Assembly (NCBI GenBank): GCA_028700115.1
Contig: JAQVTI010000002.1
Location: 418-64,417 of the forward strand
Reading direction: 5' to 3'
DNA: 64,000 bases
From: Candidatus Iainarchaeum sp.
GTDB taxonomy: Archaea; Iainarchaeota; Iainarchaeia; Iainarchaeales; CSSED10-239
This document shows, piece by piece, positions 54,604 through 57,418 of this stretch (positions are counted from its first letter, which is position 1; each line of letters starts with the position of its first letter). The position numbers and the translations under genes were made by a program. Below the pieces are notes generated by a model. The model had not been told where the DNA came from, did not search any database, and saw only the letters and a list, made by a program, of their open reading frames with translations.

Positions 54604-55077
54604 ATGAATAAAAAAGCAATTTCACCACTTATTGCAACAGTTTTGTTAATTGTTGTTGCAGTTGCATTAATTGCAATTGTTTTAAGTTGGGGAAAATCAT
54701 TTACAACACAAGGACTTTCAGAAACTGGAAATGTAGTTGATACAACTTGTACTGGTGCTACTATTACTATTCCTTCATGTAGTGTTAAAGATGGGAATAT
54801 AATATTTTATGTAACAAATAATAGTTCTACATATGATTTTGCAACATCAGATAATTTTGTATTTGATGTAACTAGTGATACTGGGGTTTATAATGCTGAT
54901 AATAATTTAAGTACATATACTTCAGAAGCATGGGCTGGATTATCAACAGGTGCAACTGTTCAAGTATCAGCATCTTTAACAACATTAGCTGTTACAGGAA
55001 ATAGTTATGATGTTGCTGTAAGATCTTCTATTTGTTCTTCTGATGCAGTTTATACATTTAAGAATTGTCATAGTTAG
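54604..55077 (+). CDS. archaeal type IV pilin-like protein (class III signal peptide)
   Basis: MNKKAISPLIATVLLIVVAVALIAIVLSWG N-terminus. SD AGGTGA upstream. Confidence 0.8.
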   Translation: MNKKAISPLIATVLLIVVAVALIAIVLSWGKSFTTQGLSETGNVVDTTCTGATITIPSCSVKDGNIIFYVTNNSSTYDFATSDNFVFDVTSDTGVYNADNNLSTYTSEAWAGLSTGATVQVSASLTTLAVTGNSYDVAVRSSICSSDAVYTFKNCHS

Positions 55078-55203
55078 ATAATTCTTTTCTTTTTTTTTAA
55101 TTAATTTTATTGCCGGGCATATTCTTAAATATAAATTTAATGTAATATATTTATGGATTATAATTTTAATAAAAAAGCAATCTCACCATAAATTGCAACT
55201 GTT

Positions 55204-57327
55204 TTGTTAATTGTTGTTTGTGTTGCAATGGTTGTAATTATTTTAAACTGGGGAAAAATGTTTACACATGATAGTGTAAAAGTTATAGATTATGCTTCTT
55301 TTACAGAATCTGATTTAGAAGGTTATGTTTTTGTAAAAAATATATTTGAATCAACTGATGGATCAGATAGTAAATTAATTTTAGATAATAGAAATAAATT
55401 AAAAGATGCAAATATAATTGCATATAAAATATTAGATTTAGACCCTTCTAAATCTGGAATTACAGATATTTATTATGAATATGATACTCCTGTTTTATTA
55501 CAACACGGGCATTCAAAAGATCTAAATGTTATTTGTTTTCCTTCAAATGAGTTTGATATTGAGTTTTATACATCTGATGAAAAATGTTTTAAAGTAAATG
55601 TTTTTGATTCATCTCTTTCTTGTCAATCTTGTTTAAATCTCCCATATTGTGGAGATAGTTCTTGTAATGGAGATGAGACTGCAAACACATGTTATTCTGA
55701 TTGTGGAAGTTGTGGAGATGGAATTTGTACATCTGGAGAAGAAAATATGACTTCTTGTTATACAGATTGTGGAACTTGTGGAGATGGAATTTGTACATTT
55801 GGAGAAGAAAATGCTACAACTTGTTATGATGATTGTGGTGAATGTGGAAATTCTATTTTAGAAGGACCAGAGACTTGTGATTCAGATACAGAAAGTTGTA
55901 CAACTTCTGTTTCAGGAATAACTTATGTTGGAACACATACTTGTTTAGGAGATTGTTCTGCATATGGAACTTGTACTACTACTAAATCTTGTGGAGATGG
56001 AATTTGTCAAAACACAGGTGGAGATGGAGAAACTGTAAGTAATTGTGTAGTTGATTGTCATTCTTGTGGAGATGGTATTTGTAGTGATGGTTATGAAACT
56101 GAAGTTTCTTGCCCTGCAGACTGTTTACAATATACTTGTAGTCTAGGAGATACAGATAATGGTGATGGAACTTGTACTGCTTTAATAGATGCAAGTTATG
56201 ATAATAGTTTAAAATATACCACTTCTAATTTTGATTATGATGCAACTACTGGAGTAGTTAATGGTGGTACTTATGTTTCTGTAGGTTCTTATGAATTTGG
56301 AGGTGCTGCCCCTGCATTATGTGTTTTAGAAGACACTTTAATTAATGTTTTAAGAAATGATGAAGAAAAAGAAATGTTTGTTCAAGATGTTTTATTGTCT
56401 GATTATATTTTATCTTGGGACTTTAATCAAAATGAATATATATATGTTCCTGTTTTACAAAAATTTAATAATACTATTAATGAATACTATATTATTAATA
56501 ATAAATTAAAAGTTACTTCATTACATCCAATATATATTAAAGATAAAGGATTTATTTATCCAGAAGAAATTACATATAATGATTATTTATTAAATAGTAA
56601 TGGTGATTTTGAGAAAGTAAATAGTGTTAAATTTGTTGAAAATGTAGATGAAAATATTTATAATTTTGAAACAGGAAATCATTTTTATTTTGCTAATGGT
56701 TATTTAACACATAATCCAGCACCTATGTCTCCTTATTTATATTATATACATAGATCTTATTTCTTTTTTGATACTTCTTATATTTCTAGTTATGGAACTG
56801 TAAATTCTGCAGATTTTAAATTTACTGTTAGTCAATATGATGAAATTACTAGTTATAGTTTTATTTTACAAAAAACAGATAATTCAACTTATCCTCATAA
56901 TCCTTTACAAACTGGAGATTTTGATGAATCTTATTATAGTGGTAATTTAGGATCTATTTCAAATTCTAGTTTTGGTTCTCCTTCTATTGTTAGTTTAAAT
57001 TCAACAGGACTTACAGAAGTTACAAATAGTTTAGGAGATACTTTTAAATTTGTTTTAAGATCTGATTGTGATGTAGGTCATTCTTGTGATGATGAGCATA
57101 AATTAGCTTATATTTATAGATATAATTCTGCAAATCCTCCTCAATTAGAAATAACTTATTCCCCTACATCTCAAGTATACTGTGGAAATGGTGTTGTTGA
57201 GACAGGTGAAGATTGTGAATGTGGTGTGGGTGCTTTTGATATGGGTAATGTAGGGGAAAATAGTTGTGTAAATTATTCTTCTGATACTTGTATAAATTGT
57301 GTTTATACTGGTGGATTTGGTAATTAA
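55204..57327 (+). CDS. Cys-rich surface protein with an embedded Hint domain; its pilin-like class III signal peptide (from the ATG at 55153) is interrupted by an in-frame TAA at 55189-55191, so it may be a pseudogene
   Basis: The frame from 55153 reads MDYNFNKKAISP*IATVLLIVVCVAMVVIILNWG, paralogous to the N-terminus of 54604. The 2.1-kb ORF downstream is intact. Confidence 0.55.
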   Translation: MLIVVCVAMVVIILNWGKMFTHDSVKVIDYASFTESDLEGYVFVKNIFESTDGSDSKLILDNRNKLKDANIIAYKILDLDPSKSGITDIYYEYDTPVLLQHGHSKDLNVICFPSNEFDIEFYTSDEKCFKVNVFDSSLSCQSCLNLPYCGDSSCNGDETANTCYSDCGSCGDGICTSGEENMTSCYTDCGTCGDGICTFGEENATTCYDDCGECGNSILEGPETCDSDTESCTTSVSGITYVGTHTCLGDCSAYGTCTTTKSCGDGICQNTGGDGETVSNCVVDCHSCGDGICSDGYETEVSCPADCLQYTCSLGDTDNGDGTCTALIDASYDNSLKYTTSNFDYDATTGVVNGGTYVSVGSYEFGGAAPALCVLEDTLINVLRNDEEKEMFVQDVLLSDYILSWDFNQNEYIYVPVLQKFNNTINEYYIINNKLKVTSLHPIYIKDKGFIYPEEITYNDYLLNSNGDFEKVNSVKFVENVDENIYNFETGNHFYFANGYLTHNPAPMSPYLYYIHRSYFFFDTSYISSYGTVNSADFKFTVSQYDEITSYSFILQKTDNSTYPHNPLQTGDFDESYYSGNLGSISNSSFGSPSIVSLNSTGLTEVTNSLGDTFKFVLRSDCDVGHSCDDEHKLAYIYRYNSANPPQLEITYSPTSQVYCGNGVVETGEDCECGVGAFDMGNVGENSCVNYSSDTCINCVYTGGFGN
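56320..56715 (+). other. Hint (intein-like, BIL-type) autoprocessing domain, 132 aa
   Basis: Begins with Cys (ALCVLEDTLINV), has a TxxH block (VTSLHP) and ends YLTHN. It is followed by Pro, not Cys, Ser or Thr. Confidence 0.65.
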
Positions 57328-57418
57328 TAATATTTTTCTAATTTTTAAAAAACTTGTTTTAAAACAAGTTTTTTATTAATGTCTATTTATATATTACATA
57401 TTATATATGTGATTATTT

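Follow-up and report, generated by a model that had tools for sequence, protein, structure and literature searches.

A candidate autoprocessing Hint domain of the BIL/pretoxin kind within a CBM-like jelly-roll of an archaeal surface protein

A surface-protein gene of Candidatus Iainarchaeum sp. (ORF 55204..57327) encodes a Hint domain that has kept the catalytic residues of inteins and is followed by a proline instead of the nucleophile that canonical splicing uses. The gene lies in a window of 64,000 nucleotides (positions 418 to 64,417 of contig JAQVTI010000002.1, assembly GCA_028700115.1), and all the positions given here are those of the window. The interpretation that we favor, and regard as probable, is that of an autoprocessing Hint of the A-type bacterial intein-like (BIL) or pretoxin-HINT kind, set in the hairpin of a jelly-roll that resembles carbohydrate-binding modules (CBM), at the distal end of a surface protein with a pilin-type head and a Cys-rich stalk. 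The features on which this proposal is built are the following (dN/dS, ratio of non-synonymous to synonymous substitution rates; HMM, hidden Markov model; AF2, AlphaFold2).

56320..56715, forward strand: Hint domain of 132 amino acids (aa), from Pfam PT-HINT, PDB matches and the family alignment and profile, dN/dS 0.17
56155..56319, forward strand: N-terminal piece of the CBM-like/DNRLRE-type jelly-roll, aa 318-372, from the N-part HMM and hhalign
56716..57159, forward strand: C-terminal piece of the CBM-like jelly-roll, aa 505-652, from DNRLRE_dom, HMM, AF2 and Foldseek, dN/dS 0.78
55204..57327, forward strand: surface-protein open reading frame (ORF), 707 aa from a TTG, with the syntenic orthologue P0003

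The stretch 56320-56715 contains no stop codons and translates into exactly 132 aa, residues 373-504 of the ORF. An initial annotation of this DNA had described here a Hint domain of that length with Cys as its first residue, a TxxH block, a terminal Asn and Pro as the next residue, and the translation confirms the description at the same coordinates. The domain begins with CVLEDTLINV (Cys1 codon at 56320-56322), contains KVTSLHPIY as block B (Thr66 codon at 56515-56517, His69 codon at 56524-56526) and ends with NFETGNHFYFANGYLTHN, the terminal His-Asn codons being located at 56710-56715. The residue that follows (+1) is Pro505 (THN|PAPMSP). Blocks A (C1), B (T66-S-L-H69) and G (H131-N132) are all present, and when the domain was aligned with 17 relatives and the orthologue it carried every invariant column (C1, T6, D28, N60, T66, H69, H131 and N132), so that the comparison by blocks also speaks for the original assignment. 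The orthologue P0003 (908 aa, 75% identical, from an ENA metagenome assembly) keeps Cys1, TSLH and THN in its own Hint and has Ala at +1. A canonical class 1 intein can be ruled out from the +1 residue, Pro here and Ala in the orthologue.

Taken alone, the domain matches the Pfam model PT-HINT (PF07591) with an E-value of 1.2e-6 and 29.3 bits, over a gathering cut-off of 27.7, while with the same model the whole protein (25.4 bits) and P0003 (23.6 bits) stay under the cut-off. The models Intein_splicing and Vint gave only faint matches. Against all PDB chains, phmmer retrieved NrdJ-1 (an intein, 4.9e-6), 2LWY (the BIL domain of C. thermocellum, 3.1e-5) and the mini-intein of Spl DnaX (6e-3), and with these structures and the PT-HINT match the Hint assignment of the initial annotation is borne out by profiles as well. 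The single sequence does not separate the classes (27.6 bits for the BIL vs 30.1 bits for NrdJ-1). An exhaustive phmmer search of 1.84 billion representative proteins with residues 330-707 produced 1616 matches at E<=1e-3, and the nearest Hint relatives among them (E ~1e-19) belong to a single family that begins with C[FL]xxGT and finishes with LVHN. In all of the 93 Hint ends that are complete in these relatives, HN is terminal, and the residue found at +1 is mostly Lys (65), with a few cases of Ser (5), Ala (5), Thr (1) and Pro (1) and none of Cys; HN|P occurs in two family members besides the 55204-protein. At least two Hints are found in 24 of 72 family proteins, often head to tail and joined by ...HNKG(G)C....

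A family profile was made from the alignment of the 17 relatives and the orthologue, including the 56320-56715 Hint itself, and searched against the PDB, where it matches 40 Hint chains at E<=1e-3. The best match is the Hint of an ADP-ribosyltransferase protein (6TMM/6Y75; 1e-22, 83.8 bits), and the A-type BIL 2LWY is matched over its full length (1.5e-21, 80.2 bits). The top true intein, Spl DnaX, reaches 52.2 bits, about 30 bits (at least 28) below the BIL and pretoxin Hints. The family profile and the +1 residue thus group the domain with the BIL and pretoxin Hints and not with the splicing inteins, and a Hint of the BIL/pretoxin-HINT kind, as opposed to a canonical intein, is the supported classification. 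The BIL-like character proposed by the initial annotation gains from the same data, i.e., Pro or Ala at +1, the HN ends of the relatives and the family-profile scores.

The location of the Hint within the protein is the other main component of the argument. The ORF has a characteristic layout, with a hydrophobic pilin-like helix followed by an N-terminal domain, Cys-rich modules of the CGDGIC type, a CBM-like domain split by the Hint and a Cys-rich tail. The C-terminal piece of the split domain opens with the +1 Pro and PAPMSP as a linker, continues with the strand YLYYIHRSYFFFD and is recognized by the HMM of Hint-less homologues (114-120 bits); the match to NCBIfam DNRLRE_dom is weak (E=0.008, profile positions 31-164 of 164). 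This piece was modeled by AF2 with a predicted local distance difference test score (pLDDT) of 80-93, and Foldseek matched it to the chondroitin-sulfate-binding CBM 8WAB (E=7.7e-5). The N-terminal piece finishes with a strand, TYVSVGSYE, and a linker, FGGAAPAL, and its detectable homology is limited to 56227-56292 (NFDYDATTGVVNGGTYVSVGSY), ending 9 residues before Cys1. The N-part HMM of the Hint-less homologues gives 10.0 bits on this flank (reached by 5 of 5000 shuffles) and 11.2 bits on that of P0003 (3 of 5000), that is p ~0.001 for both orthologues. With the Hint deleted, hhalign runs through the junction of the pair when compared to the Hint-less family (query 28-205 to template 30-197, E=1e-25); deleting the Hint in silico brought no gain with the NCBIfam DNRLRE model (15.4 vs 16.3 bits). 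The sequence evidence for homology of the N-flank is consistent but modest.

Copies of the domain that lack a Hint are all contiguous. This holds for 62 copies among the representative matches and, in 80 metagenome loci, for 77 domain hits, none of which has an insert at the hairpin. Some 50 additional residues (SSSDGyi ... aatGtv ... l.iGQ) always precede and lead into their Y.iYRsf.yFDTS. The spacing from the conserved Gln to the conserved Arg is 7-21 residues in the 62 + 39 Hint-less copies in which it was measured, and 154 in the 55204-protein (the 132 of the Hint plus 22). A search by sequence found no PDB relative of the host jelly-roll. Structure prediction was run as two separate AF2 models, one of a segment of the 55204-protein and the other of L014:1339-1932, a homologue lacking the Hint, for which the alignment had 41 rows. 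The homologue was modeled with a pLDDT of 95.6 and a predicted TM score (pTM) of 0.91, its N-terminal part having a pLDDT of 90-99, and displays a strand at 43-51 (NALIGQLYS), a two-residue turn (AP) and a second strand at 54-65 (NYSIWRSYLYFD). The Hint insertion maps exactly to this turn: TYVSVGSYE-FGGAAPAL-[Hint]-PAPMSP-YLYYIHRSYFFFD. The same model resembles CBM 8WAB (E=1.2e-6, TM 0.64-0.68, ~205 columns) and also the alginate-binding CBM 7VBO. In the model of the 55204-protein segment the Hint came out mostly as beta-strand at a pLDDT of 37-56, with no alignment depth there, so that this part of the model is not trustworthy. Since confidence is low over both the Hint and the N-flank, we infer the nested fold from the homologue, and on that model the Hint would sit at a beta-hairpin turn within a CBM-like (DNRLRE-type) jelly-roll, bordered by short Gly/Ala/Pro linkers. 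The initial annotation had placed the Hint after a Cys-rich N-terminal half; this can now be refined, as the domain appears nested in the hairpin and does not simply precede a C-terminal cargo.

A way to assess whether the domain is maintained is to compare the different regions of the gene with the 75%-identical orthologue. The dN/dS values, calculated region by region, are as follows.

Hint: dN/dS 0.17 (aa identity 90%, dS 0.29)
N-flank: dN/dS 0.16
N-terminal and Cys-rich parts: dN/dS 0.21-0.22
Jelly-roll part after the Hint: dN/dS 0.78
Cys-rich tail, 57160..57327, forward strand, from the ORF (YCGNGVVETGEDCECG... and the stop codon): dN/dS 0.92, 52% identity to the orthologue

This regional contrast speaks for selection acting to maintain the Hint, and for a recent origin of the stop codon found in the head of the gene (see below). 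The linker just after the Hint is the most altered spot, PAPMSPYLYYI here vs APGEPEDILY in P0003. The G+C content at third codon positions is 2-7% along the gene body, 5% in the Hint and 11% in the short Cys-rich tail; the Hint matches the gene body and is thus not compositionally foreign, and a recent foreign insertion was rejected on these grounds.

The resemblance to A-type BILs (2LWY) extends to the size of a mini-intein, the N-terminal Cys, the TxxH, the C-terminal His-Asn, the lack of a +1 nucleophile (Ala in the orthologue) and the location in a variable secreted protein. There is also an Asn in block F (IYNFE in the Hint, VYNFK in 2LWY) where the true inteins aligned have Asp. BILs of the A type have a His-Asn end, are found in hypervariable secreted proteins and have been described as bacterial (PMC7765530). 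The present domain departs from them in having an archaeal host, a carrier with a type-IV-pilin-type head and an intein-like position, nested in the hairpin of a folded CBM-like domain and not between domains or in a variable linker; in the 55204-ORF copy there is in addition the Pro at +1. BIL and pretoxin Hints have been described as bacterial domains that lie between others and release what is downstream of them, and this is where the archaeal, pilin-headed, intein-like case differs. A search of the open literature for BILs or other Hint domains on surface proteins of archaea, DPANN included, gave nothing relevant.

Pretoxin HINT domains (PF07591; 6TMM/6Y75) are the top Pfam family and the top PDB match of the family profile, and like them the present Hint has a fast-evolving region downstream. 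In polymorphic toxins the HINT peptidases are located just upstream of toxin domains at the C-terminus (PMC3482391), and one could imagine a similar release here, the Hint freeing its variable C-terminal domain as a diffusible effector. We consider this very improbable in spite of PT-HINT being the best model and of the much faster evolution of the downstream part, because what follows the Hint is not a toxin fold but the rest of the interrupted domain, two thirds of a CBM-like jelly-roll whose first strands are upstream of the Hint, and because the next gene is gatD and not one of the immunity type. A polymorphic toxin cassette was rejected for the same absence of a toxin fold and an immunity gene.

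With canonical class 1 mini-inteins (Spl DnaX, gp41-1 and the PorB-like inteins of this genome) the domain shares the fold family, blocks A, B and G and the in-frame insertion into a domain that is contiguous in homologues without the insert. It differs from them in the Pro or Ala at +1, the non-conserved surface-protein host, the lower family-profile scores and the lack of a homing endonuclease and of any sign of an empty-site allele among close relatives. The usual hosts of inteins are conserved, usually essential proteins, unlike this variable surface protein. The initial annotation held that homologues joining seamlessly without the segment, with Cys, Ser or Thr at +1, would make it a true intein: seamless Hint-less homologues do exist, and a Cys, Ser or Thr at +1 was found neither here nor in P0003. 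An intermediate explanation would be a degenerate mini-intein that has lost its +1 nucleophile and persists as an inert loop, tolerated because its ends are spatially adjacent. Its intein-like position and the presence of true inteins in the genome, two of them in a PorB-like gene (+1 Ser and Thr), would fit such a relic. Against this, the identity to the mini-intein of the genome is 24%, the nearest family almost never has a nucleophile at +1 and its profile favors BIL/pretoxin Hints by ~30 bits, the catalytic residues are kept at a dN/dS of 0.17 (dS ~0.29) and the host is a variable surface protein instead of a conserved enzyme, all of which makes a relic improbable in our opinion. The PorB-like gene, a thiamine-diphosphate enzyme with the FGGDGG motif, is on another contig of the genome (L002, C38, ~142504-142704) and contains two canonical inteins, a large one with a LAGLIDADG-type insert and Ser at +1, and a 162-aa mini-intein (CLSTDS...GIVVHN|T) with Thr at +1. 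That the Hint is a copy of these was ruled out by the 24% identity to the mini-intein.

The beginning of the gene requires a separate examination, and two further features are needed here.

55153..55203, forward strand: beginning of the adhesin gene's signal peptide, of class III (pilin type), which an in-frame TAA at 55189-55191 interrupts
54604..55077, forward strand: neighboring small pilin-like gene, 157 aa, found with TIGR02537, its head MNKKAISPLIATVLLIVVAV being almost identical to the head of the Hint gene

The frame from the ATG at 55153 reads MDYNFNKKAISP*IATVLL, the asterisk being the TAA at 55189-55191. This codon differs by a single base from the TTA (Leu) of the orthologue, and the neighboring pilin gene has CTT (Leu). 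P0003 has an intact head (MNTNINKKSISPLIATVLLIVV / MNTNINKKSISPLIATVLLIVVAV). The 157-aa neighbor matches TIGR02537 (archaellin/type IV pilin N-terminal domain) with E=8.8e-7 and 28.3 bits, over a cut-off of 20, and the P0003 head, of a type near-identical to that of the neighbor, gets 14.9 bits (E=0.014), below the cut-off; Pfam Pilin_N matched neither the head of the 55204-gene nor that of P0003 at E<=1. The pilin signal of the initial annotation is, in this genome, interrupted by the stop. The TAA is also read in a second, independent assembly: a Logan contig of 3384 nt and depth 6 (landfill metagenome, run X2) shows no difference from the window anywhere in 54900-57400.

A TTA>TAA change within the signal peptide means that the product may not be made or exported in the source genome, and an alternative explanation of the data would be a dead gene, with translation halted after 12 codons and nothing functional produced or exported. 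We take this as a serious possibility, though on balance a doubtful one. The TAA where the orthologue has TTA and the neighbor CTT, with the same base in the depth-6 contig, speaks for it, and so does the fact that a restart at the TTG 55204 or at the ATG 55228 would lose the charged n-region and the prepilin cleavage site. On the other hand, the other 707 codons are open in DNA of 23% G+C, and the contrast between regions with dN/dS of 0.16-0.22 and those with 0.78-0.92 is not what relaxed decay is expected to leave. On these grounds the stop, which was read from contigs, would, if real, be recent or polymorphic in the population.

To return to the autoprocessing Hint that we favor, the analysis establishes which catalytic residues are present, that the +1 nucleophile is missing, to which family the domain belongs, where it lies in its host domain (by homology) and that it is under purifying selection; the chemistry that we infer would proceed as follows. 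After folding or export, Cys373 would attack the carbonyl of Leu372 (N-S acyl shift), aided by Thr438 and His441, to give a thioester. Asn504, aided by His503, would cyclise and the Asn504-Pro505 bond would be broken. As there is no Cys, Ser or Thr at +1, neither the trans-esterification nor the branched intermediate of canonical splicing can take place. The geometry of the hairpin holds both cleavage ends side by side, and with the two new ends on neighboring strands of a single hairpin two outcomes are possible, nicking or re-joining. In the first, the thioester would be hydrolyzed and the Hint excised, leaving a nicked two-chain tip domain that either holds together or sheds its fast-evolving outer part. 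In the second, the freed amine of the +1 residue would attack the thioester (the aminolysis splicing reported for A-type BILs), restoring a continuous jelly-roll. From the analysis, cleavage or nicking appears more likely than aminolysis splicing; the latter would be more plausible in the orthologue (Ala at +1) than in the 55204-protein (Pro at +1).

The native +1 residue of the C. thermocellum BIL is Ala, as in P0003. A-type BILs reportedly splice with a non-nucleophilic +1 residue, as the titles of Dassa 2004 and Aranko 2013 indicate; Amitai et al. 2003 is a further reference for A-type BIL domains. The statement of the initial annotation that the domain cannot splice holds for the canonical route but not for a non-canonical one of this reported type. 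BILs without a +1 nucleophile yield mainly cleaved products (PMC7664689). Both outcomes, splicing without a nucleophilic side chain and a self-nicked two-chain tip domain, are little studied and become testable with this protein; modules that excise themselves or ligate their flanks without Cys, Ser or Thr at +1 are of interest for protein engineering.

The Hedgehog C-terminal (Hog) domain offers another precedent, as it has the Hint fold, uses only the N-terminal thioester and acts in an exported protein without splicing (PMC7664689). Hog domains do not have the C-terminal His-Asn step and possess a sterol-recognition region, unlike the present domain, which keeps an invariant His-Asn and shows no region that would recruit an adduct. 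By analogy with Hedgehog cholesterol transfer or with thioester-domain adhesins, the Leu372 thioester might be handed over to an outside nucleophile, leaving the stalk covalently tethered; it could be taken up by a further pilin subunit, by the envelope of a partner cell, or by an amine or sugar that the CBM-like tip has bound. The setting is suggestive, with the Hint within the CBM-like tip of a pilin-headed protein in an organism with a 0.96-Mb genome, related Hints recurring on pilin-headed proteins of archaeal and bacterial type, and Cys1 and TxxH under purifying selection. We nevertheless regard the hand-over as unlikely, given that the terminal His-Asn, superfluous for a pure Hedgehog-like transfer, is strictly conserved too, which points to C-terminal cleavage as well, and that the acceptor is hypothetical. 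In a more specific and slightly less probable form, ligand binding would bring the exported thioester to an amine or hydroxyl on the partner surface, and the capture would tether the archaeon covalently to its host. If true, this would be an extracellular ligation free of enzymes and ATP, performed by an ultra-small, possibly episymbiotic archaeon, and akin to Hedgehog lipidation or to the Gram-positive thioester-domain adhesins.

Several observations weigh against an autoprocessing Hint in a split jelly-roll. The N-flank aligned alone by hhalign reached only E=0.028, though on the same template columns (30-52, collinear with the C-part); it adds no significant score to the whole-domain HMM (equalled or exceeded by 70 and by 290 out of 1000 shuffles), and in the AF2 model of the 55204-segment it has a pLDDT of 27-42, without alignment depth there. 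The exact arrangement is known from two full sequences only. The 55204-gene copy may be a pseudogene, the TAA being present in both the assembly and the independent contig. Guidelines for intein vectors advise that Pro at +1 may hinder or slow Asn cyclisation.

The genome amounts to 0.96 Mb in 47 contigs, a small size as in DPANN archaea, and encodes the archaeal GatD/GatE beside the adhesin gene; gatD begins 92 bases after the adhesin stop codon. The locus of P0003 (L003) is syntenic: after tldD and gtrA come the pilin-like gene (157 aa), an additional DUF285 gene (609 aa), the adhesin and gatD. In a more distant relative (L010, GatD 60% identical) gtrA is followed directly by gatD, and because they adjoin there, the pair of pilin and adhesin is a variable insert, a surface-protein islet. 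P0003 (L003 5001-7727) has 186 extra residues after aa 280 of the 55204-protein (~56044), made of an additional domain and CGDGVC modules; the Cys-rich stalk gains and loses modules, to judge from the sequences.

Single-protein searches of genome contigs and metagenome contigs gave no further orthologues with a Hint inside the jelly-roll, and a word-indexed protein search with the Hint alone as query found only the 55204-protein and P0003. The orthologue is absent from 6 of 6 species genomes of the same genus. Hints related to that of 56320-56715 at E<=1e-5 were found in 5 of 215 genomes of the phylum, four of the five belonging to the same family as the source genome. One of these genomes (G009) encodes a 473-aa pilin-headed protein (TIGR02537, 21.6 bits; PT-HINT, E=4.5e-17) in which the Hint is followed by only 18 residues, LNYYAYVDHIRMTVYYTN, resembling the last beta-strand. 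Other Hints of the phylum end as LVHN|ELPVTKIELREVYISFTFNF and VVHN|PAKPV. The representative search yielded 74 proteins of the Hint family, 2 of them with archaeal pilin heads and 3 with bacterial ones of the GFTLVE type. Such heads can be seen in P0030, P0058 and P0155 (bacterial, GFTLVE-type) and in P0109 (archaeal, RAVSPVIATIL). The initial annotation knew of no such domain in an archaeal pilin-signal adhesin and suggested a survey of DPANN surface proteins; pilin-headed proteins with this type of Hint were met again among related archaea and in metagenomic data, and the arrangement is thus no singular case. With the same Hint type on pilin-like proteins of related archaea and of GFTLVE-headed bacteria, the case would concern an entire class of surface proteins of ultra-small microbes that is as yet undescribed.

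A sub-group of the Hint family (L005/L093 of G016, P0051, P0067, P0102, P0114, P0136 and P0055) ends ~20 residues after HN, with a tail that is amphipathic, strand-like and finished by Phe or Trp (e.g., KAFVGGYITSVSIKISFTF and ELPVTKIELREVYISFTFNF). It might represent either the final strand of whatever domain precedes the Hint or a sorting signal. The Hint of the 55204-gene is also covered by contigs of two other metagenomes, one algae-associated and one from wastewater. In the latter (run X3) a 218-nt contig is identical to 56406-56623, within the Hint, and contigs of the same run over flanking parts of the gene differ by 3-7%.

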